From: Desulfobacterales bacterium
GTDB taxonomy: Bacteria > Desulfobacterota > Desulfobacteria > Desulfobacterales > UBA5852
DNA: 64,000 bases
Assembly (NCBI GenBank): GCA_963674755.2
Contig: CAXXVS010000002.1
Coordinates: forward strand, 2,272,001-2,336,000
Direction: 5' to 3'
Shown: positions 3,776 to 58,122 of the stretch, in pieces
Layout: every line of letters begins with the position of its first letter
Position numbering within the stretch: position 1 is the first letter of the stretch
Program-made: the position numbers and the translations under genes
The notes under the pieces: generated by a model
The model's input: the letters and a program-made list of their open reading frames with translations, nothing else
What the model was told of the DNA's origin: nothing
Database searches by the model: none

Positions 3776-5494
3776 TCAGCCCTCATCGGATCCTGTTGGG
3801 TCTTTGCCCTTGGCGGCCTCCTCGGCGGCGAGTTCCGCAAAGGCCACCTTGCCCACCAGCGTGAGGGGCAATTCCTGGCGGAATTCGATTTCCCGGGGGC
3901 AGCTCCAAAGGATAAGATCTTTACGGCAGAAGTCGATCAGCTCCTTTTCCATGGCGGGCCCGGCCTTGGCCGGATCCTTCAGCACCACGAACCCCTTGAC
4001 CCGCTCCACCTGTTTTGCGTCCGGCACACCGATGATGCACACCTCCTGCACCCCCGGATGCCGGTAAAGCTGCTCTTCCACCTGGGCCGGATAGACGTTC
4101 ATGCCCGAAGACTTGATCATGCGTTTCTCCCGCAGGCGGAAGTAGAAGAACCCGTCCCTGTCCATGGTGCCGATATCGCCGGTGTGCAGCCAGGTTTTTC
4201 CGTCCGGGTGGACCTGCAGGGCCTGGGCCGTTTCCTCGGGCTGGTCCAGATAGCCCATCATGACGGCCGGACCGTGGAGGCAGATCTCGCCTTCCTCGCC
4301 CGGCGGCAGGGCCTCCGTGGTGCCGGAGCGCACGATCCGCGCTTCCATATCCGGGAAAGGAATGCCGACGCTGTTTTCGCGGTACTCGCTCATGGGCATG
4401 GCCATGATGGCGGTCACCGCCTCGGTCAGACCGTAGCCCTCCCTGAGCTGGGTATTGCCCCCCTGCTGACGGACGATGGCCTCGAAACGCTCCTTGACCT
4501 TGCGCGGCAAGGTGTCGGCCCCGCAGAAGGCGGCTTTGATGCAGCTGAGATCGGTTTTCCGGAACACCGGGTTGCGGTTCAGGGCCTCGAAAAGGGTCGG
4601 CACGCCCACAATGAAATTGGGCCGCTTGCGCCGGATCAGTTTGGCCACCTCCTCCGGTGTGAACTGGGGCACCATGATACTCTTGGCGCCCCCCATGAAG
4701 GCCGCGTTGAGGCATACGCCCAGGCCGAACCCGTGAAACACCGGCAGAATGGCCAGGATCGCATCGCCGGCCGTCAAGTCTCCCCAGGCCGAGACCTGCA
4801 TGCCTTCAGCAATAAAATTCCGGTTGGACAGCATGATGCCTTTGGGCTTGCCGGTGGTGCCGCCGCTGTAGAGGATGACGGCCAGGTCTTCGAAACGGGC
4901 CGGTCCCTTGTCCACCCGGGGATGAGGGCCGCTCATCAGGGCCCGCCACCAGACCACCATGGGGTCGTCCGGCACCTTGGGAATCTTGCGGCCTTTGGTC
5001 AGCTGGAAGCCGATGCGCATGATCCGGCCCAGATAGTCGGGGATGCGGGCCAGAACCAGTTTCTCCACCGGAGTGCTGTCCAGGATCGATTTAAACTTGC
5101 CGTAGAAGGCGTCCAGGGTCAGGGCAAAGCGGCTCCGGCTGAGATTGAGATAGAAGGCGATCTCGGTGGCCGTCGAGAGGGGGTGAATCATGCTGGCCAC
5201 CCCACCCAGTTTATTGACCGCGTAGAATCCGATCACCGCCTGGGGGCAAGTGGGCATGGCGATCGTCATGCGGTCGCCGGCCCTCATCCCCAAATCCGCC
5301 AGGGCATCGGCACAGCGATCGATTTCGGCCACGAACTGCCGGTAGGTCGCCTGCCGGCCGAAAAAATCATAGGCCGCCGCCTCCGGGCACCGTTCAGCGG
5401 TCAGCGCCAGGGCTTCGTACATGGTCACTTGGGGATAATCGATGTGATGGGGCACATCACCGTAGTAAGCGAGCCAGGGTTGGTCAGGGGTCAT
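3776..5494 (-). CDS. Long-chain fatty acid--CoA ligase (AMP-binding family)
   Basis: YSGGTTGKPKG, EGYGLTE, WLHTGDIG, C-terminal GKV. Confidence 0.93.
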   Translation of the reverse strand: MTPDQPWLAYYGDVPHHIDYPQVTMYEALALTAERCPEAAAYDFFGRQATYRQFVAEIDRCADALADLGMRAGDRMTIAMPTCPQAVIGFYAVNKLGGVASMIHPLSTATEIAFYLNLSRSRFALTLDAFYGKFKSILDSTPVEKLVLARIPDYLGRIMRIGFQLTKGRKIPKVPDDPMVVWWRALMSGPHPRVDKGPARFEDLAVILYSGGTTGKPKGIMLSNRNFIAEGMQVSAWGDLTAGDAILAILPVFHGFGLGVCLNAAFMGGAKSIMVPQFTPEEVAKLIRRKRPNFIVGVPTLFEALNRNPVFRKTDLSCIKAAFCGADTLPRKVKERFEAIVRQQGGNTQLREGYGLTEAVTAIMAMPMSEYRENSVGIPFPDMEARIVRSGTTEALPPGEEGEICLHGPAVMMGYLDQPEETAQALQVHPDGKTWLHTGDIGTMDRDGFFYFRLREKRMIKSSGMNVYPAQVEEQLYRHPGVQEVCIIGVPDAKQVERVKGFVVLKDPAKAGPAMEKELIDFCRKDLILWSCPREIEFRQELPLTLVGKVAFAELAAEEAAKGKDPTGSDEG

Positions 5495-11848: not shown

Positions 11849-12670
11849 ATGAACAGAACGCACACGACCATATTGGCGGGGGGGATTCTCCTGCTATGGA
11901 TGGCGCCGATCGTGATCGGCTGTTCCCGGACCGGGGAGCGCGAGGCCGGCCGAAATACCCTAGAAGAGGAGTCTGCCATGAAACCTGAAAACCGGACCTT
12001 GTCATCGACCGACGTTCTGCCGCCCATCGACGCCGCCGCCCCGCAAACCTTTGATACGGCTACTTTTGGCCTGGGGTGATTCTGGGGCGTGGACGCCCAG
12101 TTCGGGGCGCTCGAAGGGGTCATCCGGACCCGTTCCGGCTATGCCGGCGGAACCACCCCCAACCCGGATTACGGCCACATCGGCGACCACACGGAAGCCG
12201 TTCAGGTGGACTACGACCCCCAACGGATCAGCTACGCGGAGTTGCTGGAAGTCTTCTGGCAAAGCCACCGGCCCACCAGCCCTCCCTGGAAACGACAGTA
12301 CCTGAATGCCGTTTTCTACCATAATGACCGGCAGCAGGAAGAAGCGCTGGCCTCGCAAGCGGCGGTCGAGGAACAACTGGGCCGCACCGTACAGACCGAA
12401 GTGATCCCCCTGCGGTCCTTCACCCGGGCCGAGGATTACCACCAGAAATACCTGCTCAAGCGTGAAGCCGATCTGCTGCGGGACCTGACTCGGGTCTATC
12501 CCCGCCACCGGGACCTGGTGGACTCCACGGCTGCGGCCCGTCTCAACGGCTATGCCGGTGGATACGGGAGCCCGGAACAGCTCGACCGGGAAATCGACCG
12601 CCTGGGACTCAGCCCGGCCGGCAAGGAAAAGTTGGAGATGCTGGTGCACCACAAGGGGCTTTTCAATTAG
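11849..12670 (+). CDS. msrA: Peptide-methionine (S)-S-oxide reductase, selenoprotein (in-frame TGA at 12077-12079)
   Basis: TATFGLG-TGA-FWGVDAQFG matches the G-C-F-W-G active site; the two ORFs are in one frame; GYAGG, GDHTEAVQVDYDP, AEDYHQKY; alternative start at 11978. Confidence 0.9.
12082..12100 (+). promoter_or_regulatory. Candidate bacterial SECIS hairpin
   Basis: CTGGG(G)CG-TGGA-CGCCCAG stem-loop 2 nt downstream of the TGA. Confidence 0.55.
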
Positions 12671-12804
12671 GTTCCTTCCGCCGAGGGGGAGATTTCCGGA
12701 AGCCCCTTTAGCGCACGGGCTACGGCTTGACCTCGGTGGAAGGGCTGTTTTAAGTGACGGATCGAAATCGTCTGCAAAATGTGTTGAAGACTGGAGCAAC
12801 GCCC

Positions 12805-36291: not shown

Positions 36292-36341
36292 AAAAAAGCC
36301 GAACTACACCGTCGGTGACCTTGACGATGTCACCCCTCGGC
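36292..36341 (-). terminator. Riboswitch expression-platform terminator
   Basis: GCCGAG...TTCGGC-TTTTTT; the 5' arm overlaps the aptamer 3' end. Confidence 0.6.
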
Positions 36342-36442
36342 AGCCCGGCTATCTTGCCTACCTGTGCGTCAAGTACCCGCGTCGGTCGAAGACCCGTGGT
36401 TTTCCGTCCGCACCTCACGGTGGGGTTGGCTTTGCGAATTGT
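36335..36442 (-). ncRNA. GEMM-I cyclic-dinucleotide riboswitch (c-di-GMP-I family; A20 variant)
   Basis: AGCCAACCCCACC-GUGA-GGUGCGGACGGAAAACCACGGGUCUU...AAGAUAGCCGGGCUGCCG matches GEMM-I architecture; sits 5' of the nucleotidase. Confidence 0.85.
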
Positions 36443-46607: not shown

Positions 46608-47165
46608 CCGGGTCAGGCCCGGGAAAAGCGTCTGCGCCCAATAAAAGGCGCCTTGACCTTCAATCCTTTTTCATTATGGTACAAGGAGGGCCAGCATGCC
46701 TTCCTGCATCATCTGAGCGCCGTCTTCGGCTACCATGAGATGCTGATCGTCAAACCGATGCGCTTCTAACGCGCCCGCCCATGGATGGCGCTTCACTAAT
46801 GAGTGACCAGCTCGAACGCCTCCCGTTTCGAGTTACAGATCAATTCATGAATGTCCCATTTGGTTCCGTTGTCGCGGGGTTGTTCCAGCTTCTGAGCCAT
46901 GACGACGTGTTCGCCGAGTGCCCGCAGGGTAATCATGCCGTAGACGGCTACATTTCGGTCCTGCTTCTCTTCCATCTCCTTCTTGAGTCGCGTGCGTTCC
47001 TTGGCGTCATCAGCCTCTTCGATCCGACGGAAATAATCTCGAAGCGCGTCAAAATACTTTAGAGGTGCTGAGTGACATATGGCATCTCCTTCACGGGTCT
47101 ATAGGGCTTTTTATGCTTCTTCTCCTGGCGTTCGAATGGAGACCATTCTAAATTTGCTCTTGCAG

Positions 47166-47268
47166 TCGCGGATAGGGATGCCGGTTAACCCTTACAGAAA
47201 GCCGTTACCGACTTTCTCCCGGCAGGGACTTACACCCTGCAAGATGCGCCGAGCTTTGCTCGGCGCGA
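47166..47268 (-). mobile_element. Miniature group II intron derivative (5' end fused directly to the 3' end) starting in an attC core
   Basis: About 80 nt nearly identical to the 5' end of 49305-50147, joined to a domain VI-like end TAACCGGCATCCCTATCCGCGA. Confidence 0.75.
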
Positions 47269-47339
47269 TAACGCCAGTTTAACCGGCGTTTATCGGAGCG
47301 TAGCGGAGATAAACGTCCGTATTTAAACTTTTGTTACGC
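47266..47339 (-). repeat. attC site
   Basis: cgataac...gttacgc with internal palindrome. Confidence 0.8.
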
Positions 47340-48143
47340 TTAGGTGATTGATTTTGAATTGTTTCCAAATTTAATCAGCGGTCTCGGAAGAAATATTATT
47401 GCGATAAATGCAGCAACTCCCCAGAAAAGAAAATTGTACTGTTTCCGGTAGTTGACTGCAAACGCAAGGAAATTGGCCGACTCGTGTAGTAAGATTGCCG
47501 GTAATACACTTCCTTGGGCTTTGTATATAAATAGTGCCATGACAATCGTCCAACAAGTAAGCAAATATATATAAAGAATAAGGGAGTCACCATATTGAGA
47601 CGATCCAGGTGCAAAAAACAGAGGCAGATGCCAGAGGGCCCAGAGAGTGCCTACAACAAGACTGCCCCCAAGTGATCCCAGCCTATTTTGAAGTTCTGGC
47701 AGTGCAAATCCTCTCCAGCCGATCTCTTCACCAAGCCCGTTATAAACCAAGAAAAAAATCATGAAACCCAAGGGCATAGATGGCGAAAACCAATTGTTAG
47801 GTAATTCAGCTTCTGAAATCAAGACTGCTGTCAATGTACTTGCAGCCGCAATCACCAGTGGAGTCAATATTGCTGCAATGTACCATATTATATTGAAACG
47901 CCAATTTAATGAACGCTTTATTAGATGATGAAGCCCATATTTCCCATTTGTTATCAACAATGAGGTAGTAGCCGCAATTAAGGCTGCTGGAACTCCGATA
48001 AGGACAAGTAATCCACCCAATTGTCTAGGATCGTAAGTGAAAGGTATTTCAAACAGTTTTCCAATACCAAACAAAGCCCATAGTATCGAATACGAAATCA
48101 CGACATACAGAATGAGATGAGATAGCTGAGTCTGTTTTGCCAT
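47340..48143 (-). CDS. Cassette: CPBP (CAAX/Abi) intramembrane metalloprotease
   Basis: GEEIGWRGFALP, WALWHLP, LLH...N. Confidence 0.92.
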   Translation of the reverse strand: MAKQTQLSHLILYVVISYSILWALFGIGKLFEIPFTYDPRQLGGLLVLIGVPAALIAATTSLLITNGKYGLHHLIKRSLNWRFNIIWYIAAILTPLVIAAASTLTAVLISEAELPNNWFSPSMPLGFMIFFLVYNGLGEEIGWRGFALPELQNRLGSLGGSLVVGTLWALWHLPLFFAPGSSQYGDSLILYIYLLTCWTIVMALFIYKAQGSVLPAILLHESANFLAFAVNYRKQYNFLFWGVAAFIAIIFLPRPLIKFGNNSKSIT

Positions 48144-48189
48144 ATTTATGTACCTAGATATTTTCTTAATCTAGTAAAACCACAATTAA

Positions 48190-48319
48190 GCATAATGCAT
48201 TTTTCAGAGGCCGGGCGGCGATTGTCGAAAATGAACCGCTGAAAGACATTGTTTATATTTGTTTTAACCTTAAAAAAACCGCGCCGTAAGCCCGGTCCCA
48301 CTGCAAAAAATTGTTATCT
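48190..48319 (-). repeat. Long attC site with mutated core (ATT instead of GTT)
   Basis: gcataat...gttatct; arms pair (tgcatttttcag.ggccgggc / gcccggtcccactgcaaaaaa). Confidence 0.7.
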
Positions 48320-48697
48320 TCTTTCCTCATAATCCCAGTAAGATTCATAAAATGTATCATGTAACATCAATTCATCTGTTTCATCAGAGGAAAGACTTTC
48401 ACCATCCCAATCCTCAATTTCAATAATGTTTGGTTCAGTTACGCCATCTATGAGAGAGCATAGATGAAAACAGGGATACGCACATGCATCTTTAATAATT
48501 TTCTTTAGCGCAGCTTTTGCTGTATCTGATAATTCCAGTTTTGAAAGTGCTGAAATCTCATCCTGACTGAGTTCTATTCCCGGAGGGTAATCAGGCGAAG
48601 GTTTTCCATTTATTCCTAAGGCATTAATTGCAACTTCTGCAGACTCTTCAATTGCAGCATGTATTTCGGCAAAAAGTGCCTTCTTACTTTCATTCAT
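48314..48697 (-). CDS. Cassette: hypothetical protein
   Basis: Single ORF between attC sites, RBS GGAG. Confidence 0.8.
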   Translation of the reverse strand: MNESKKALFAEIHAAIEESAEVAINALGINGKPSPDYPPGIELSQDEISALSKLELSDTAKAALKKIIKDACAYPCFHLCSLIDGVTEPNIIEIEDWDGESLSSDETDELMLHDTFYESYWDYEERR

Positions 48698-48709
48698 ATT
48701 TTCTCCAAA

Positions 48710-48777
48710 AAATAACGCCCTGGCTTAAAGGTGAGGGCCGCGAAGTGGCCCTAATCCGATACAGCCTGATGTTATAT
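48710..48777 (-). repeat. attC site
   Basis: aaataac...agggccgcgaagtggccct...gttatat. Confidence 0.75.
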
Positions 48778-48791
48778 TATTCCGATTTATT

Positions 48792-49295
48792 TTATTTCGT
48801 TTTTAATTCTGGAACTCCTGCGTATTCCGCCCACAGATCCCTGCATAAAACCTGCACTTGACCTAGATGAACCGAAAATCGCCTGATAATTATCACCTCA
48901 TCAGGCATTATGAAAACCCAACTGCCATCCTTTCTTTCAATTTGACGAGTGAATACCGCGAATTTATTTTGATCTTTATATAGCGTTTCTACTTTATTCC
49001 TAAAATATCTTAGCAATTTATTAATATTATCATTTCCAATTATACCTATATCCTCCCCATAAAACACACCGCCCAAAAACATATAACTTACAATATTAGA
49101 TTCCACTTCACCAAACTTAGCAACTGAATCCCCTATTTTGTACCACTTCATATTTGATTCAACTTGTATGAATTCAAGACTTGCATTTTTAATTGTGGAA
49201 ATGTTTTGGCGGCATTTAAAGCGATTCAAATAGTTCGCTTGTGTAACTTGGGGAAGTAACAAGATTAGAAATATGGGAAGTATTTTTTTCATCAT
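48792..49295 (-). CDS. Cassette: hypothetical exported protein
   Basis: Signal peptide MKKILPIFLILLLPQVTQA. Confidence 0.8.
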   Translation of the reverse strand: MMKKILPIFLILLLPQVTQANYLNRFKCRQNISTIKNASLEFIQVESNMKWYKIGDSVAKFGEVESNIVSYMFLGGVFYGEDIGIIGNDNINKLLRYFRNKVETLYKDQNKFAVFTRQIERKDGSWVFIMPDEVIIIRRFSVHLGQVQVLCRDLWAEYAGVPELKTK

Positions 49296-49304
49296 TTGAA
49301 TATC

Positions 49305-50147
49305 TCGTGGTAGGAACGCCGGTCACCCGGCGCCCCCCACTCAGACCCGGACGTGCGGTTTTCTCCCGCCATCGGCGGGATTCTTCGGTTGGACTCGCTT
49401 CCGCGCGGATCTTCACAGTTGCCCGTTACAAGATCCAGTTGCTATTCCCCGCAGTGAGGTTGGCTCGTGTTATCCAGCCCTACATGTCCGGCACGAGTTT
49501 CCTTTGTGGGCTACGTCCTTCCGTCAGGTCCTTTCCCGTGCATGTGTCCATGACACATGCCTGTGGCTGGCTTTCCCAACCTCTGAGTACTATGCCTGAT
49601 AAGACACCCCAATGGCATATAGCCGCCTTGCGACGACCCACCTGGTTCAGGATCATGATTGCCAGGAGCGCAATGGGGCTTCCCGAGTTCTACAGCGCAT
49701 CTCTTCCTGCATGCCACGGCCTGATGACTCCGGCGGACCTCCACATCCTCGCCTGTAACGGATGCGTCTGTATTGCCTTCGGTGCACGTTAAAACCCTCG
49801 GCGTCCGCAATTGCTATTTCGAAGCTGTACCAGCTCTTCAGGGAGCGCGGTCTCCCCTACGGCCTACAGGATTCTCTGCCTACGCTTAGCCCATCTTGTT
49901 CGATACCTCTGCTCCATTGTTCGTTCAGTGGGGTGAGACCATCCGCGAATGCCACCGGTCTCCCGGGTCGCGGCTCGTTTCCAGCCAATACAGCGACTTC
50001 CAGCACTTACAATGATCAGAAAGCATCTCCGCCATGGACCCAAGGCTCGATACGGGTGGGGGGCTAACCCTTACAGAAAGCCGTTACCGACTCTCTCCCG
50101 GCAGGGACTTACACCCTGCAAGATGCGCCAAGCTTTGCTCGGCGCGA
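49305..50147 (-). mobile_element. ORF-less group II intron starting in an attC core
   Basis: Domain V/VI-like end GAAAACCGCACGTCCGGGTCTGAGTGGGGGGCGCCGGGTGACCGGCGTTCCTACCACGA; domain I-III-like motifs (GGGTGTAAGTCCC, GCCGAGGG...CCGAAGGC, GAACTCGGGAAGCCC, GGGAAAG); only a short ORF stub (PTSLRGIA). Confidence 0.88.
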
Positions 50148-50206
50148 TAACGGCGCTTTTCAGCGGGCGCGGCTTTTTGCGATCCGCTGCAAAAGCTTTG
50201 TTAGAA
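50145..50206 (-). repeat. attC site
   Basis: cgataac...cagcgggcgcggctttttgcgatccgctg...gttagaa. Confidence 0.85.
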
Positions 50207-51307
50207 TTTCTCAATATCTAAACGCCTTTGATTATGTTTAAGCATGGCTTTTAAATTTATCATTCCAATATTTCTCAACACTATCAATCAAAAAATTCTC
50301 TGTCGGAAGATTATAGCTACATATATTAGTTAGTTTGTCATTTTCTTTTTCGACCATAACATGGTCAGCCTCTGAATATTCTTCTTTGTGCTCTTTGTAT
50401 ACGGACAAAATCGATTTTCTAATATCGTCAAATATTGAATACTCAAATTCATCAGTAATAAGCTTATCAACATTCATGATTTCCGCAAGTATCATGTCTT
50501 TTTTGTCTTGGCTAAATGAATTCCAATAGGACGGTTTAACAAACCAATGGTCACTACTATGAATCATAACCGATTCAATAAAGCTTAAAATTGTAAGAGG
50601 AGTTTGGAAATAGAAATCGATAATATTTCGAAAAAAATTATTGTGTTCTTTACCTGCCGAACAAAAAACATATGTACAATTTTCTAATGGAATGATGTTT
50701 GTTATCATGAGCATTTTTTTATTGGTTATCTCATCGCCATATGCCAAAGAGGTATAGCCGCAAAGAGCTACTGGGAATTGGTAATCAATCCGAACTCCAT
50801 GGTTTATTGTTGTACTATTTCTATTTTGAGAATTGCCTAAATATTCATTAAGGATTCGTGATGAGTAATCTTTTAAATAAATTATACGCTTTTCAAAATC
50901 TTTTTTCATATATCGCAATTGAATCAGTATGACATCATTTGCTTTAATATTAAGGCAATCAATATCTTTTTTAATTCCTTGCCTTCTTAAGTTTGCTCTC
51001 AATATATTGAATGCTTGTTCTTTCATTATAGATTCATATGTTTCAATCATTACCTGCATTTTATCAACTTCAATATAAAGATGAACTATCTCTCTGCAAA
51101 TTGATCTGTATACCTGCAATGCAAGAAAAGATTCTTCATCCAACTTCAAATTTTCATATTGCTGAAAGATTTTTTCATGGGCTTCACAGTACCCCGGAAA
51201 GGTAGAGGCTTTGTTGACTCCTACCGCCTCCATTGACAATTTAAAGTTGCTTCCAAACACATCAAATACAGGTTGAAGGACATGCCCTTGATCAGTGTGC
51301 AACATCG

Positions 51308-52357
51308 CTAATTATGACACAATTCGGATGAAAAATCGGGTAACACTTTACCTGCTTTGCGGATCGTGATCATCTCGTTTTTAAGCAGCCATTGGGTGGC
51401 CGCTTCCCGCCAGGCGGCCGGCACGATCCAATCCTTACCAGCCCCCTGGGATATAGTGATGGCCAGATCTCTGATCCAGCGATAGACGTCCTGGCGCTTG
51501 CGCTTGGGATAGCGAAGCCGCTGCTCTCCAAAATAGACATAGCAGGCATTTCGTCCTTCAAGGCTGCGCCGGGAGCGGTGATTCAAATCATGGGCTGCGG
51601 TTTCCGCCAGCACGGCAGCGCCGCGGCAACTGTCCGCTTTCCAGCCCCAGTCACGAAGATAGCGTTTAAACTCGCCCTGGGTATGCTCGATGGCCCCATT
51701 GTAGGGCGCCGTATAGGCCGGACTGTTGATGGGAACCACCAGAGCCTCGGACAGAATATCGTCAACGGCGGCATGATTGAGATTACCGCCATTGTCGCGT
51801 TTACAAAACAACGGCGCCCCGAACTGAGAAAACAAGTGATCCAAATGCCCGGCGACTTCCTCACCGCAGGCAAGCTGTGTGGCCGCCAGGGGACGGAACT
51901 TGTAGCGGGAACATAAGTCACTCAGATTATGCAAATACAACCGGCGACCATCGACAATCTCCGTACACTGGCAGTCATCCATGGCCCAGGCCAGATTCGG
52001 CCGCAGCCAGGAGACCTGACAGGTCTGCGCCGAACGCTTGCGGTTCGCCTCCCGGCGGACATCAGCAATCATCCGTTCCAACTCCCGCCGGGAGATAGCA
52101 TCACCAAAAGCGCCCTTAAGACGTCCAGTCCCACGGCTGCGCCGGTGTCCGTGCTCGATGTCCCGGATCTGCGCTTTGAGTTCACCGAGATCAAGCGGAC
52201 AGACCTTCTTCGGTCCGGATTTCTCCACCGGTGCCTGCCCCCGGTCCAGCCGCCGCTTCCAGCGCATCAACGTGGCGTAGCCTATCCCCAGTTCCCGGAC
52301 GATGATGCGGATCGACACGCCATAGCGCTTTTTCATCGCCTCGATCATGATGACCAC
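51308..52357 (-). CDS. DDE-type integrase/transposase (rve-like)
   Basis: WAMDD, DLCSRYK, KRDNGGNL, PYNGAIE. Confidence 0.85.
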   Translation of the reverse strand: MVIMIEAMKKRYGVSIRIIVRELGIGYATLMRWKRRLDRGQAPVEKSGPKKVCPLDLGELKAQIRDIEHGHRRSRGTGRLKGAFGDAISRRELERMIADVRREANRKRSAQTCQVSWLRPNLAWAMDDCQCTEIVDGRRLYLHNLSDLCSRYKFRPLAATQLACGEEVAGHLDHLFSQFGAPLFCKRDNGGNLNHAAVDDILSEALVVPINSPAYTAPYNGAIEHTQGEFKRYLRDWGWKADSCRGAAVLAETAAHDLNHRSRRSLEGRNACYVYFGEQRLRYPKRKRQDVYRWIRDLAITISQGAGKDWIVPAAWREAATQWLLKNEMITIRKAGKVLPDFSSELCHN

Positions 52358-52370
52358 CTCTCGGATGCGC

Positions 52371-52718
52371 TCATTTTTTTTTCGCCCGGTCCAGGCCGGG
52401 ATCCAGCTTCAGCTCCGTCAGCACGTCCTTTAAGGCCATCTTGTGGCGCATCAGGGCGCTCTCCCGCTGGGCCTCGGCCAGCTGCTTTTCCAAGGCCTCC
52501 CGATGGCGGTCCACAGGCTTTTGCGGGCGGCCGGCAGGCTGATCCTCCAGGCTGCCCAAAAGGGCGCTTAGGCCCCGTTCCTCCCACTTGTAGTAGGTTT
52601 TCCTGGAGACGCCCAACTGGCGGGCCGCCTGGCTGGCACTCAGAAGACCGCAACGCACCTTCATGATCGCCTCGGCCCGCTGACGGGCCCTCTTTTGCGA
52701 TGGAGGACGCGCTTTCAT
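52371..52718 (-). CDS. HTH protein of the IS element
   Basis: SASQAARQLGVSRKTYYKWE plus coiled coil. Confidence 0.8.
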   Translation of the reverse strand: MKARPPSQKRARQRAEAIMKVRCGLLSASQAARQLGVSRKTYYKWEERGLSALLGSLEDQPAGRPQKPVDRHREALEKQLAEAQRESALMRHKMALKDVLTELKLDPGLDRAKKK

Positions 52719-52739
52719 TATCGCCTCCTGGTGAAGGAA

Positions 52740-53048
52740 CTAGGTGGCGCTGGCCTTCTGGATGCTGCGCAGGCGCTTCTCCAATTTCGCATTGGGGGCG
52801 GCCAGCTTCTTTTCGATCAGCCGTGTGAGCCGGTGATTGAGCGGCGGTAAGGGGGCTTTCGTCGTGGGATCCAGCGCTTTGAGCATGCCCTCGATGGCCA
52901 GGTTCTGCCACTGGCCGAGCAGCGCCGGGCTGATCTCCATCTCCTGGCAGACCTGGGCGCTCGTGCGACGCTCGCTCCAGATCGACAACACGGCCGTGAT
53001 TTTCTGTTGTGGATCGAATATCCTGCGGGGACGTTTGGCTGTCTTCAT
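52740..53048 (-). CDS. HTH (OrfA-like) protein of the IS element
   Basis: RRIFDPQQKITAVL...VCQEMEIS...QW. Confidence 0.75.
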   Translation of the reverse strand: MKTAKRPRRIFDPQQKITAVLSIWSERRTSAQVCQEMEISPALLGQWQNLAIEGMLKALDPTTKAPLPPLNHRLTRLIEKKLAAPNAKLEKRLRSIQKASAT

Positions 53049-53448
53049 CGTCTATACCCTTTCTCGCATCGTAGACAAGTTCTTTTTGGGGGCGCTGCTG
53101 CTCACCATCCACCAGCATGCGCACTTTGCCCTTTTCCGCCCGGATCACCACGGATTGATCTCCCATGCGGCCCACCATGTAAAACGGGTCCACCGGCCGG
53201 CCCCGCAGGGCCAGCTCGAGGGCGTTTTCCTCCACCCCCTGCGCCAGGGTGCGTTTTAGATCGTGGGCGATTTCAAAGAACCGATCGGCCGGGCAAAGCC
53301 CGCCGATGCCCTGATGCGGTCGTTTGTAATTGTAATACTTCACCCAGTACGCGCAGCGCTCCACGGCCTCGTCAAAGCTGGCAAACTGCGCGCGCATACG
53401 CGGCTTGGCCTTCCCCCCTCTATCCTTGGTCTTACCTCTCTTAACCAT
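53000..53448 (-). pseudogene. IS481-like transposase remnant (start fused to the C-terminal region; 3' limit approximate)
   Basis: MVKRGK... directly followed by F.SFDEA...WVKYYNYKRPHQGIGGLCPADRF; HTH and DDE core absent. Confidence 0.7.
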
Positions 53449-53539
53449 GGGACACACTCCTTTCATTTCAATTGATTCCTACACTCAGGAGTGTTACCCA
53501 ATTTCCCTATATCGGTTGTGTCATCATCTGGTGACTAGG

Positions 53540-53640
53540 ACAACCATGAAAAGACAAGCCTATGGCTACCGTGATCAGGAGTTCTTTAAACTTAAAATCA
53601 TGACCATTCACTTGGCCAGGTACGCATTAATCGGATGAAC
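53540..53640 (+). pseudogene. ISL3 transposase 3' remnant with terminal repeat
   Basis: TMKRQAYGYRDQEFFKLKI...YALIG* ending at GATGAACC. Confidence 0.8.
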
Positions 53641-53897
53641 CTGCAATTTGGATATATGCATGTTCTCTGTTTCCAATATTTTTTACTATATTTTTGGCTT
53701 ATTGATTTGAAAAGAGGGCTATAAGCTTTAAAGCTTTGTATTTCAAGTGATCGATTATCTATGAGCTCAATTAGATTTTCTAATTCAGCCTCAATGATAT
53801 TCTTGCCTTCCATATCAGTAGTACCTATTTGCTGATTCCCCAAAACTTATCATAGACGGAGATGTTTTTTCTGAGTTCACCCGAAACTTGAAGCGAT

Positions 53898-53965
53898 TTC
53901 TAACGGTGATGCTTACCGGCTGGACGGCATTTTATCGCCCAGTCGGGTAGAGCATTTTGTTAGAA
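53898..53965 (-). repeat. attC site
   Basis: ttctaac...gttagaa. Confidence 0.85.
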
Positions 53966-54431
53966 AATTTATTATCTTTTGCGGCAACCAATTAATGTTT
54001 TCCTGAGGTAACCAATTGATGTCTTCTAAACCCTGTAGCGCAAGTTTCGCTTCCTTTAGGGACTCCATATACATTAGTTTATCACGAGTGTCAGGATCTA
54101 CCTCCAACATATTACTATTATTTATAACTTTAAGAATTTTGTCTGAAACTTTTGGAGAAAAATAAACTGTTCTCTCAACCCAAGCCGAAATCACCTCTTC
54201 ACACACCTGTTTGAAATTTTCTTTTCTTGATACTGCATCTGCCAACTTAAAAAGTAGAACATGCATGACCTTGTAGGCTTCTATTCGTTCTTTAAAAATA
54301 AGATCCAAACGCTCTTGATATTTTTTCCATCTTACACTTTTAAGTTGGAATACTTGTATTATAACCTGACCAATTAAGGTTATTGAGCTTCCGATTATTA
54401 CTCCAAGTAGGACATCGTTCATATCAATCAC
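53913..54431 (-). CDS. Cassette: hypothetical protein with N-terminal membrane helix
   Basis: ORF between attC sites; reads into the attC; C-terminal INWLPQ duplication. Confidence 0.8.
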   Translation of the reverse strand: MIDMNDVLLGVIIGSSITLIGQVIIQVFQLKSVRWKKYQERLDLIFKERIEAYKVMHVLLFKLADAVSRKENFKQVCEEVISAWVERTVYFSPKVSDKILKVINNSNMLEVDPDTRDKLMYMESLKEAKLALQGLEDINWLPQENINWLPQKIINFLTKCSTRLGDKMPSSR

Positions 54432-54433
54432 CT

Positions 54434-54491
54434 TTCTAACGGCGGGGCTTTGTGGCGAGGGAACCGAGTCCGCAACAGCCCAAGGTTAGCC
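54434..54491 (-). repeat. attC site
   Basis: ttctaac...gggctttgtggcga...tccgcaacagccc...gttagcc. Confidence 0.85.
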
Positions 54492-54852
54492 TTTATTTGG
54501 TCGCTTTATAAAAAACTGCCGATAATGATAAATCCAAGAACTATAAAGTAAGACGATTATTATTGATCCAATATCAACCATCTTGAATCTAAGAGCTATA
54601 TCATTTTGATTATCCCAACCAGCACGGATTAAAATGTCATTATTTACCAACAGGATATTAAAAATAAAAGCGATAATAAAAAAAGCATTAAAATAGAGGA
54701 ATCCGTAGTATGACCATCGATGAATTTTAAAAATTCCGATCGCCAATACAATATTTATAAGAATTATTATAGATTGCAGGATATCATAATGCATGCCCTC
54801 GAATAGAAATCCAAATAGTATAAAACTACTATTGGCATTAAATAATTTAGGT

Positions 54853-56260
54853 CACTCTTGTCCAAAAACGGGATTATATGGAAGTAATCTAATGAGATCT
54901 TGAAAAAAAGCCCCCTTGTAAGGCATGGTTTAGCTGCGAAGAAAAACCTATAGCCAACAACAAGGAGGCAAATTGATGGTACGTCACGCAAGCCTGTTCA
55001 GTCAACTGGTTGGTCTGTTTAATCGAGGGCATTTTCATAACCTGGTCTTTCGGCATCAGGCGGAGCGGGTATGCAAAGGGTTTCACCAGCTGGGATCATT
55101 TCGTAGCCATGCTTTTTTGCCAACTTGCCCAAGCCAAGAGCCTTCGCGAAATTTGTGGCGGCTTATCCTGCTGCCTGGGCAAGCTGCGTCATCTGGGGGT
55201 GCAAAAATCCCCGAATAAATCCACGCTGTCCTATGCCAATGCCCATCGTCCCTGGCAATTGTACCGGGATCTCTTTTATCAGACCCTCAACGTCTGCAAA
55301 ATGGCCGGACCTGGCAAACACCGTTTCCGCTTTAAGAACAAGCTACTGTCGCTGGACAGCTCCACCATCTCATTGTGTCTGTCTTTGTTTCCCTGGGCTA
55401 AATTCCGTCGAACCAAAGGGGCCGTGAAACTCCACTTGCTGTTAGATCACGATGGCTATCTGCCCACCTTCGCCTACATCTCTAACGGAAAGAAGCACGA
55501 TGTGACCATCGCCCGCGGGGTACCGCTGGCTCCCCATTCGATTGTCGCCATGGACCGTGCCTACAATGACTATCGGCTCTTTGCCGAATGGACAGAAAAC
55601 CAGATTTACTTTGTCACCCGGCTCAAGGGCAATGCCGATTACAGGGTTGTCGAGGATCGCGGCGTACCTGCCAACCGTAATATCCTAAGCGATGAGCTCA
55701 TCGAGTTTAATGGCTATAAGGCACATAAACGCTGTCCCTATCCCCTGCGCAAAGTCGTTGTATGGGACAAGGAGCATGACCGGGAGCTCATCCTCTTAAC
55801 CAATCACCTGAAGTTTGGCGCTACGACCGTATCGGCCATTTACAAAGATCGCTGGCAGATCGAGCTCTTCTTCAAGGCGCTTAAACAAAATTTGAAAGTG
55901 AAAACCTTTGTCGGCACGACAGAAAATGCCCTCTTCATTCAGATTTGGACAGCACTGATTGCCATGCTTCTGATCAAGTATCTCAGTTTCAAGGCCAAAT
56001 TTGGCTGGTCGTTGTCGAACCTAGTGGCGTTTTTGCGTTGGAACCTGTTTACCTATAGGGATTTATGGGAATGGATCGACCACCCCTTCGATGTGCTGCC
56101 GATCATCCCCAAATCCGTCCAATATCTTCTTCCGTTCAAGGGACTTGGACAGCATCAATTGAAAACGGCAACCTGATTTTAACTTTAGGGCATTTATACG
56201 CCTAACTCCTTGATATCGTTACACCCGAAAGGGATTCTTAGTTTATTTTGGACAGCAGTG
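54853..56260 (+). mobile_element. IS4 family insertion sequence
   Basis: Inverted repeats CACTCTTGTCCAAAA / TTTTGGACAGCAGTG; 9-bp target duplication AATTTAGGT. Confidence 0.92.
54976..56176 (+). pseudogene. IS4 family transposase with a frameshift near 55066
   Basis: MVRHASLFSQL...HQAER continues in another frame as YAKGFTSWDHF; LDSSTI, MDRAY, YKDRWQIELFFK. Confidence 0.85.
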
Positions 56261-56362
56261 AATTTAGGTATTCCAATAATAGCGGCTAAGAATGTAAAGA
56301 CGCTTAATATTGTAAGCCCTTTTGGTCTGATAATATTGTCCATAACATCCGTTATGTTTGGA

Positions 56363-56490
56363 GGCTAACGCTCTACATGACCGGACGGGAAAACGATCAC
56401 GTCCTATGCAAAGGATACGTTTAATAATGATTGCTTAAAAGCTAATAATGGCATCGTTTTCCCGGTCCGATGTCCATGCAGTTGTTATGT
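56363..56490 (-). repeat. Long attC site
   Basis: ggctaac...ggacgggaaaacgat...atcgttttcccggtcc...gttatgt. Confidence 0.85.
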
Positions 56491-56736
56491 CTTATCTCGC
56501 TTATTGTTTCTTGATAGAAATCCATAACCAAAAAAACCTAAACCCAAAAAAAGCCCTACGAGGATCAAACTATAAAATTTATTATCTTTTCCAAATATAA
56601 TTAAAGCCAAGATAATTCCTACAATCCCGACGACTACAGCAAAGCCAGTTTGATTAGCTTCACGTTTATTTAGCTTTGCCCCTCTGAAGGGAACTATCTG
56701 GGCTTCATCCTTTTCGTTGTTTGAGCTTTTCTTCAT
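56485..56736 (-). CDS. Cassette: small membrane protein
   Basis: Two hydrophobic helices; stop codon lies in the inverse core. Confidence 0.8.
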   Translation of the reverse strand: MKKSSNNEKDEAQIVPFRGAKLNKREANQTGFAVVVGIVGIILALIIFGKDNKFYSLILVGLFLGLGFFGYGFLSRNNKRDKT

Positions 56737-56760
56737 AATTTATTCAATTTTATCTCAGAG

Positions 56761-56833
56761 ACATAACGTTCTTCTCACCTGGCCGGTGTGGAGCGGCAGC
56801 GTAACACCGGTCAGGTGAAGAAATTGGTTAAAA
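56761..56833 (-). repeat. attC site
   Basis: acataac...cacctggccggtgt...acaccggtcaggtg...gttaaaa. Confidence 0.88.
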
Positions 56834-57160
56834 GCTATTTTTATTTTGTTTTCCAAAAGTCATCAACAGTATGCCAGCAACCAAAAGGTTTAATCCAATT
56901 AAATGAACAATAAGGGCAAACGACATAGTTGAATGAACCCAGTCCAGTAATCTGTGCTGAGTTTCAGATACAAAATTTTGCCAGGGAATTATTTTATTAT
57001 ACATTGAACCGATTGCTGCGAGGAATGCACCTCCACCAAAAAGCATCCCACTTTTTGTCCGAAATTTATAGTAATAGAATACTCCGGATATTGCTAAAGC
57101 CGGTAATGTAATGAAACTGTAAAAGGAACCTAATATTTTCAATAACAACTGATTATCCAT
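56828..57160 (-). CDS. Cassette: membrane protein
   Basis: Three hydrophobic segments; stop codon in the inverse core. Confidence 0.8.
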   Translation of the reverse strand: MDNQLLLKILGSFYSFITLPALAISGVFYYYKFRTKSGMLFGGGAFLAAIGSMYNKIIPWQNFVSETQHRLLDWVHSTMSFALIVHLIGLNLLVAGILLMTFGKQNKNSF

Positions 57161-57175
57161 AACTCTCTATTAGAC

Positions 57176-57238
57176 TTTTAACGTCCGAGCTGAGACGCGC
57201 GAGGTTTCGCGCGTCGGTTCTCAAGCGACAGGTTAGAT
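57176..57238 (-). repeat. attC site
   Basis: ttttaac...gacgcgcgaggtttcgcgcgtc...gttagat. Confidence 0.88.
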
Positions 57239-57691
57239 CATTCTTCTTTTAATTAGTCCGGAATAGCTCTTCACTATAAAAATTATGCTGAAGACGAAAA
57301 CTAAAGGTGCGACAATATCCTTGTGAATTATTGGGACAGGAGATTGAATTAGCAGATCTTTATATATTATTTTAATCCAATCCAAGACACCGCCTTTATG
57401 TGAAAATGCAGCAAATAGTCGGCCTGCAACCATGTAAGTTGAAATGGCGATTGTAATATGGCGTCCGGCTTTTTTCCCTTTTAGCAAAAGGTATCCACCC
57501 AATACCCCGACGACAATCATCAGGTAAGCTTTCGCAATGCTGAGATGGACAGCGTTTTGAACCGATGGGTCCGTGGGTATTGGATAATTCGTAAAAGGCG
57601 GCACATATTTGAGATACATCAACCAAACACAAATTGATAATATGCCTATTGTATATTCGATCCGGCTATTGTTCATATCATAAGGTTTCAT
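57233..57691 (-). CDS. Cassette: membrane protein
   Basis: Four hydrophobic segments; core GTTAGAT at 57702-57708 matches its inverse core. Confidence 0.8.
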   Translation of the reverse strand: MKPYDMNNSRIEYTIGILSICVWLMYLKYVPPFTNYPIPTDPSVQNAVHLSIAKAYLMIVVGVLGGYLLLKGKKAGRHITIAISTYMVAGRLFAAFSHKGGVLDWIKIIYKDLLIQSPVPIIHKDIVAPLVFVFSIIFIVKSYSGLIKRRMI

Positions 57692-57708
57692 TTGGTAGAC
57701 GATCTAAC

Positions 57709-58054
57709 GTTCGCTTCAGCCCGTCGAGTGTCATATTGGAAAGGGTCGGGCTGATTATCCCGCCCTGAGGCGCTCCTTTACGAGAAGGATATAAGATGCC
57801 GTTTTCAACATATCCTGCCGTGAGCCACTTGCTAAGAACAACTTTATCCATTACGATGTTTTCGAGCATCCACTCTGATGAAATGTTATCGAAACACCCG
57901 GCGATAGGCCCGTGCTCACTGACGGCGCGTAAAGTCCTTTGCCTACTCTCGCCATATTGCCCCACGGGCGCAACACTCGATACGGGTGGGCGGCTAGCCC
58001 TTACCCGACAGGGACTTACACCCTGCAAGATGCACCAAGCTTCGCTTGGCGCGC
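57709..58054 (-). pseudogene. Group II intron 5' end fused to an internal reverse transcriptase/maturase fragment
   Basis: 5' end homologous to 49305-50147; GCFDNISSEW...KWLTAGY...PQGGIISPTLSNMTLDGL. Confidence 0.88.
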
Positions 58055-58122
58055 TAACGGTTGAGCTGTGGGGCGGTAGATGCGTCAGCATTTATCCGTC
58101 CCACACAAGTGATTTGTTAGCC
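58052..58122 (-). repeat. attC site
   Basis: cgctaac...tgtggggcggtagatgc...gcatttatccgtcccaca...gttagcc. Confidence 0.85.

Follow-up and report, generated by a model that had tools for sequence, protein, structure and literature searches.

Class E-like group II intron remnants in cassette-sense orientation behind integron attC sites of a Desulfobacterales bacterium

The 64-kb window analysed here (positions 2,272,001 to 2,336,000 of contig CAXXVS010000002.1, Desulfobacterales assembly GCA_963674755.2; "the window" denotes this whole stretch) carries three group II intron copies that stand directly behind attC, the recombination sites of integron gene cassettes. With good confidence, these copies can be regarded as remnants of a class E-like retro-intron that lacks an endonuclease and prefers attC in the cassette sense. 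The position, the strand and the enrichment at attC were confirmed as real and well above chance. At the same time, attC is a strong preference of the lineage and not its sole target. The lineage is found across several phyla and in many environmental bacteria.

The integron array occupies the minus strand from about 47.2 kb to past the window end, and the open reading frames (ORFs) of the cassettes lie on the same strand as the three intron 5' ends. A covariance model gave 16 distinct attC matches in the window. The integron integrase (TIGR02249, 415 bits, above cut-off) is encoded at G000:C2:2339256-2340191, 3 kb beyond the window end, and the locus thus contains both IntI and an attC array, the two parts by which an integron is recognized. 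Read on the minus strand, the bases that come after GTTA are TCGCG at 47268 and 50147 and GCGCG at 58054, and the three intron ends are mutually 90-96.5% identical over 50-86 nt. The initial annotation had placed three homologous 5' ends immediately behind GTTA, in the R' boxes of three attC sites and in the cassette sense, beginning with TCGCG or GCGCG and not with GTGCG; both statements were borne out by direct reading of the sequence. The copies and their sites are as follows.

47165..47268, minus strand: copy A, an 86-nt TCGCG-type 5' end that passes, at a short shared motif, into a domain VI end of the GCGAC type
49303..50147, minus strand: copy B, an 845-nt ORF-less group II intron, TCGCG...GAGA, matching Rfam RF02005 at 58 bits
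57962..58054, minus strand: copy C, a class E-like 5' end of about 93 nt from the GCGCG/GAGCG sub-lineage
47266..47339, minus strand: attC site A, the last of the array; R' GTTA at 47272-47269; anatomy score 11.0; bottom-strand fold
50145..50206 (covariance match from 50144), minus strand: attC site B; R' GTTA at 50151-50148; E 5.7e-5; anatomy score 14.0
58052..58122 (covariance match from 58051), minus strand: attC site C; R' GTTA at 58058-58055; E 3e-4; anatomy score 10.5

Sites A, B and C each fold as an attC bottom-strand hairpin. The covariance model, trained without these three sites, recovers B and C and misses site A (47266-47339). In the anatomy test for attC the pass mark is 11; the test was tuned on 14 training sites, of which 12 pass. 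Of the 17 sequences used to train model R1, one (L006:3521-3575) sits within an ORF and is probably not an attC. Genome-wide there are 40 attC matches in at least 11 clusters, together with several broken integrase genes outside the main array on several G000 contigs.

The intron is considered to start after GTTA because its relatives with the canonical GTGCG end align base for base with the TCGCG, GCGCG and GAGCG ends. At the other end, the six bases behind CTACC are retained in 22 TCGCG introns, with A as the sixth in 20 of them, and the seventh base varies (T 11, G 9, A 1, C 1). The 3' end is therefore placed six bases after CTACC, so that copy B spans 50147-49303; ends at 49305, 49304 and 49302 were rejected by this comparison. 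The first of these had been proposed initially and was 2 nt off, but the associated claim that excision restores a cassette start stood: removal of copy B gives GTTATATT, the exact complement of the R'' of that cassette, AATATAAC. The parts of copy B and of its cassette are listed below.

49786..49791, minus strand: exon-binding site 1 (EBS1) of copy B, UAACGU, a loop placed by the Rfam alignment, complementary to RCGTTA and covarying with the target
49809..49819, minus strand: bulge of copy B at the EBS2 position, pairing weakly with exon positions -7 to -15
49440..49463, minus strand: ORF stub PTSLRGIA, followed by the short domain IV hairpin of an ORF-less family
49344..49386, minus strand: domain V of copy B, with a local inverted repeat in place of its 5' strand and its triad register lost
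48792..49295, minus strand: cassette ORF of 167 aa, starting 7 nt past the 3' end of copy B
48710..48777, minus strand: attC of the cassette bearing copy B, whose R'' AATATAAC is complementary to the restored start GTTATATT

The stub PTSLRGIA was among the features noted initially. The proposed Rfam and folding check yielded the RF02005 match of copy B and the assignment of UAACGU as EBS1; RF02005 was the only Rfam match on the introns, and domain V gave none. The family search with the 167-aa ORF was also without a match. Copy B alone among the window copies retains all six domains, with domain V scrambled, and is probably dead because of the inverted repeat in place of the domain V 5' strand. 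The 3' end of copy A was read by likeness to an intron end at G000:C3:1150765 and could be 1 nt further; excision leaves a GTTATGC start. Copy C consists of the 5' end, followed by pieces of domain I and of the reverse transcriptase (RT) gene of a CL1-type intron and then by half an attC.

57902..57964, minus strand: CL1 domain I piece, 98% identical to the CL1-type intron of the next entry
57721..57906, minus strand: RT fragment, 90% identical to the CL1-type intron at G000:C2:1975497-1975682
57702..57720, minus strand: attC right half fused to the RT fragment, a deletion scar

All three copies are 5'/3' chimeras, and all of them look dead.

BLAST against the genome revealed five 5' ends of the family: the three window copies, a 51-nt 5' fragment that follows CGTTA without a full attC, and a full-length copy on contig C1. 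The latter is the full-length RT-encoding copy that had been sought; it measures 2059 nt (L001:10364-12422) and lies in the cassette sense after an attC ending in GCTA. Its intron-encoded protein (IEP), P0001, matches TIGR04416 above cut-off, RVT_1 and, weakly, GIIM, and contains YADD; the domain scan showed no endonuclease domain in it. The first 457 nt of copy B are 98.7% identical to the C1 copy. In the domain III region the identity to C1 is 71%, and that to ORF-less copies of two Desulfobacterium metagenome-assembled genomes (MAGs) is 87-88%; the exact domain IV junction of copy B is common to the latter copies. The intact C1 copy is the likely driver of the window remnants. Four of the five 5' ends in the genome follow an attC, three of the five by the strict test alone. 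For three of five the binomial P is about 2e-4 against the intergenic rate, which was taken from 35 attC-like sites among the 1217 RCGTTR sites outside rough ORF calls (7941 in the genome).

The segment behind the C1 intron occurs twice, at L001:8183-8600 behind an empty attC ending in GCTA and at 12423-12790 behind the intron. The encoded fragment, which we take to be radical SAM-like, has a CxxxCxxC motif. Contigs of two public runs diverge from the C1 copy after 12422 or 12423; run X1 may represent the source sample. No contig joint omitting the whole intron was found among the joints listed, with 17 further joints outside these.

At least 186 distinct 5' junctions were obtained from genome, metagenome and viral collections (6 matches were skipped; all family counts refer to the matches listed), and the attC test was applied to the 171 junctions with at least 150 nt upstream. 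It was passed by 52 of 124 GTT junctions (42%) versus 4 of 47 others. As background, 2500 GTTA sites drawn at random from the genome gave 1.0% and 555 shuffles gave 0.7%; at other CGTTR sites of the same loci, neighbouring attC sites included, 19 of 284 passed. The metagenome pattern scan alone gave 36/85, TCGCG introns alone gave 20/53, and 27 of 55 intron types had at least one attC junction. The 5' exon ended in GTTA in 48/58 TCGCG, 12/13 GCGCG, 9/12 GAGCG and 48/97 GTGCG junctions. Independently, the covariance model ends 3 nt inside the intron at many attC junctions. Among 45 attC junctions with sufficient flanking sequence, 31 had a sense ORF of at least 60 codons ending at R'', and 2 had an antisense ORF alone, starting there. 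The viral collection contributed 2 pattern matches; among the 5000 best plasmid records no close relative was present (all below 60%, the best at about 40% identity). By the strict count 58% of the copies are not at attC, although attC is used at about 40 times the background rate, so the question posed by the initial annotation, whether most copies lie away from attC, received no clean answer in either direction. In three loci (L123, L133 and L168) the insertion at attC is one base earlier, after GTT, with a matching shifted EBS1 in L123.

Target recognition was followed through EBS1. An earlier extraction from 20 introns gave no clear signal, and an alignment-based version, which yielded the EBS of 54 of the 108 sufficiently long introns, took its place. 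EBS1 pairs over at least 5 bp in 38 of 39 GTTR junctions. In 15 introns with other targets the changed EBS1 loops match these targets (mean 5.0 bp versus 2.9 permuted, 0/1000); since related sequences are not independent, these statistics are to be read as support and not as a probability. In the window, 15 of 15 attC sites carry CGTTA at the top-strand R', versus 0 of 15 on the bottom strand, where R'' has TGTTA or GGTTA. EBS1 UAACGU pairs with (R)CGTTA, which occurs in the top-strand R' only, and this explains both the strand and the base of insertion. The G-rich strand carries the sense strand of 5 of 6 intron loci and 10 of 11 attC clusters. By established replication logic, the G-rich strand would be the lagging-strand template at the fork.

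On this basis, the ribonucleoprotein (RNP) would reverse-splice into single-stranded DNA where EBS1 pairs with (R)CGTTA, directly after the A. The covariation shows that the pairing sets strand and base, CGTTA being present in the top-strand R' and absent from the bottom-strand R''. The target top strand would be the G-rich strand, hence the lagging-strand template, and reverse splicing could be linked to the fork. Weak EBS2 pairing and folded or exposed attC DNA would probably add to the preference, and loss of insertions in genes may add further to it. Lying 3 nt past the G/TT crossover, the intron would by known integron chemistry become part of the next cassette; it would be transcribed with the array and spliced out of the transcript. 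Stacking at the same base would be possible because insertion leaves the upstream target intact, and deletion within such a stack could yield 5'/3' chimeras like those of the window.

Several points weigh against this reading. The attC test is failed by 72 of 124 GTT junctions, and in one MAG (L009-L014, L016, L017) only 3 of 8 copies pass; the threshold of the test was derived from the sites of this same genome. Some of the failing junctions resemble degenerate attC halves by eye, and others are plain CGTTA. In the shifted-register control 46/111 junctions pass at -1, 41/111 at +1 and 3/111 at +3; shifts of 1-2 nt carry no information here, since the test tolerates slack in the spacers. For EBS2 the pairing is weak (3.3 versus 2.9 bp). 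EBS1 pairs poorly at two junctions, that of the C1 copy after GCTA and that of L046 after GTTC. The empty paralogue of the C1 junction better fits an end 1 nt longer (GAGAT versus GAGA), and the two paralogues differ at other places too. The strand bias is confounded because nearly all attC clusters (10 of 11) are on the G-rich strand in any case. A strong upstream fold was found in 7 of 47 non-attC GTT junctions (15%), versus 11% of 200 controls. Finally, splicing and mobility of the lineage are predicted from sequence.

A serious though rather unlikely alternative is that sequence match and survival account for everything: the intron would insert at any RCGTTA with some EBS2 pairing, insertions elsewhere would be purged, and arrays would tolerate junk. 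The many insertions at plain CGTTA without a hairpin speak for it, as do a faint TRAGC-like upstream bias common to the non-attC sites and the presence of several insertion sequence (IS) elements in the array. However, sites other than attC have the stronger EBS2 pairing (3.7 bp, n=12, versus 2.9 bp, n=17, at attC). Moreover, when a weight matrix of 18 nt is trained on 46 non-attC junctions, the predicted attC use is 1.5% genome-wide, 5% with intergenic survival only and 14% if attC sites are undercounted threefold. A matrix trained on attC junctions predicts 5, 15 and 35% for the same three settings, whereas 4 of 5 were seen in the genome and 42% across the family. Since local sequence predicts at most 35%, an added boost from attC structure or accessibility is probable.

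This boost could be taken further, to an IIC-like recognition in which the RNP requires an upstream DNA hairpin and a short intron-binding site 1 (IBS1). The initial annotation had likewise proposed recognition of the hairpin plus GTTA. Attractive here are the attC use above sequence prediction, the splicing of class E introns with EBS1 alone in vitro (PMC3753933, available text), and the hairpin idea of Sonbol and Siam (PMC7923331, available text). Such a requirement is nevertheless improbable, more so than the sequence-and-survival explanation: the non-attC sites show little hairpin excess, from which it follows that the hairpin is not required, and several clean copies have no fold (L011, L016, L141, L235). 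The GTTA part of the proposal held, through EBS1 pairing and covariation; the need for a hairpin did not. A class E-like intron that is aimed by pairing and probably aided at attC remains the preferred reading.

The class was assigned from RNA and protein features. Domain V has a 5-nt loop in 49 of 49 pattern matches, although the pattern permitted other lengths. Of the 16 introns in which the pattern detected alpha' at the tip of a stem-loop in d3, 11 show a pairing of 5 bp or more with the presumed alpha, and copy B and C1 reach 6 bp. Together with the endonuclease-less IEP and about 55% identity to the published class E fragment H.ha.F2, these features uphold the class E-like nature suggested initially. 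The lineage is likely class E, an assignment made from sequence features that are in part also those of class F (the 5-nt loop and the d3 alpha') and from a quick tree that included no class reference proteins. Class E introns measure 450-700 nt without the ORF; the C1 copy measures about 750 nt (2059 nt less the P0001 frame, start codon approximate) and copy B 845 nt. In the tree the TCGCG clade is monophyletic (19 rows, SH-aLRT 100) within a 29-protein clade (SH-aLRT 95) that targets only GTTR or GCTA; CGTTA targets occur outside the larger clade as well.

The catalytic core of the TCGCG clade deviates from the general pattern of group II introns, GUGYG...AY ends with an AGC or CGC triad. 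(The two triads are those given in the available part of a review.) The triad is AAC in 27 of 27 TCGCG domain V matches and AGC in 22 of 22 others, and the partner base of the triad swaps along with AAC in all 22 introns checked. That the element is an ordinary IIC-attC intron read on the wrong strand is scarcely credible: its first 11 nt resemble the IIC 5' consensus in the available text of PMC4028801, but intron and cassette ORFs share a strand, the target is CGTTA at R' and not TTGT/T at R'', EBS1 pairs over 6 bp, domain V has the 5-nt loop with AAC or AGC, and the RT is about as near to LtrA (124.5 bits) or a CL1-type RT (117) as to solved IIC RTs (124-136).

Tandem introns at one site were found in L077 (2486-5740), L134 (790-2970) and also L236. 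In L077, an ORF-less copy is followed directly by a full-length copy behind attC. An ORF-less family with intact domain V and the domain IV remnant of copy B was seen at L020:6762-7600, L046, L048 and L077, and related junctions occur among the loose ends in run X3. This family is a candidate passenger element that may be mobilised in trans. Two more 3' intron fragments without 5' ends lie on contig C3 (L004 ~4550-4770 and L005 ~4360-4420). A full-length CL1-type intron stands behind an attC right half at L003:4290-6550 (G000:C2:1974290 onwards), where GTTAT is followed by TCGCG. It has a UAACGU loop and a GT end as in UHB.I2, and some of its relatives begin 5-6 bases into the R' core. From its sequence, this intron appears to be a second class aimed at the same attC core in this genome. 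A wider picture, possible but put forward tentatively, would combine a class E-like clade, its ORF-less passengers and a rewired core (5' UC, 3' GA, AAC). The clade would be specialised for R' by pairing plus the single-stranded or folded state of attC, with harmless splicing, riding on cassettes and collapse of stacks that deletes cassettes; with the CL1 UAACGU loop, this would make attC targeting convergent between separate intron classes.

Several other features were observed in and near the array. The last cassette (47340-48143, minus strand) encodes a CAAX prenyl protease-like protein, and the attC upstream of it (~48190-48325) apparently has ATT instead of GTT. An IS481/IS3-like element with extra ORFs (51308-53640, minus strand) interrupts the array; beside it is what we presume to be an ISL3 end. 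An IS4-family transposase lies within a cassette at 55010-56176 (plus strand), and a c-di-GMP-I riboswitch at 36336-36440 (minus strand). At L006:5020-6500 (G000:C2, 3 kb past the window) the integrase is co-directional with the cassettes, with an open frame of 445 aa; the apparent attI region is 3' of its gene and contains a 17-nt motif twice.

Published comparisons are drawn here from the available parts of the papers cited. The attC habit of the lineage was partly anticipated in print: Sonbol and Siam (2021; PMC7923331) described the class E fragments H.ha.F1 and H.ha.F2 in a cluster of attC sites lacking an integrase (CALIN) of Halorhodospira halochloris, with attC-like sites upstream. Both are on the cassette strand and in leading-strand sequence, and they apparently belong to the same lineage as the window introns; the protein of H.ha.F2 is colinear with the C-terminal 209 residues of P0001, with about 115 identical by eye (~55%). 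They were reported as 5'-truncated fragments, with speculation on hairpins, and the accessible text gives no insertion base, EBS1 pairing or survey of the lineage. The 5' end of H.ha.F2 may have been missed, because the attC ends 125 nt before the annotated fragment. A literature search, mostly of papers open without subscription, found no paper in which the target base, the EBS1 pairing or the distribution of the lineage is defined, no systematic class E homing to attC and no AAC triad; UCGCG ends or the AAC triad may already be described in Simon et al. 2008 or in the figure of class E boundaries in PMC4028801. PMC12584367 makes no mention of attC or class E, and the accessible part of PMC3552965 holds no RNA boundary data.

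Group IIE introns such as Cl.be.I2 (Nagy et al. 2013; PMC3753933) share with the window lineage the 5-nt domain V loop, the alpha' tip in d3, EBS1-driven recognition and the lack of an endonuclease; the available text links none of them to attC. The TCGCG clade differs from them in its 5' UC, 3' GA and AAC (versus GU, AY and AGC); these coordinated changes of the two ends and the triad could serve as a natural test of the active-site rules of group II introns. Two introns of other classes are likewise in the sense orientation at attC, each as a single case: UHB.I2 (CL1/IIB1), directly after an attC, and a top-strand IIC intron of Enterobacter cloacae, both from PMC7923331, where the second is cited. 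The review gives three target rules for bacterial group II introns and assigns attC to class C alone.

IIC-attC introns (S.ma.I2 and kin) are also endonuclease-less group II introns inserting in integron attC. They insert into the bottom strand at R'' (TTGT/T), run opposite to the cassettes and can stop transcription that starts at the cassette promoter Pc (PMC3001079, PMC4424553, PMC7923331); class IIC has a shortened EBS1 and no EBS2 (PMC3753933). The window lineage, in contrast, uses the top strand at R' after CGTTA, in the cassette sense and with a 6-bp EBS1. With its TCGCG and GAGA ends, an EBS1 of 5-8 bp and the bulge at the EBS2 position, it is unlike IIC beyond the first 11 nt. Strand, target and RNA features all separate it from IIC-attC, as the initial annotation had maintained. 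New relative to IIC-attC are attC-targeting introns that are class E-like, sense-oriented and aimed by base pairing. Since the C1 copy is intact and has a 6-nt EBS1, it lends itself to a direct test of hairpin against sequence. A homing-type intron would in this way reach attC by base pairing, on the strand opposite to that of IIC-attC. Unlike the latter, a sense intron could be expressed from the array promoter, leave the cassette usable and spread on cassettes.

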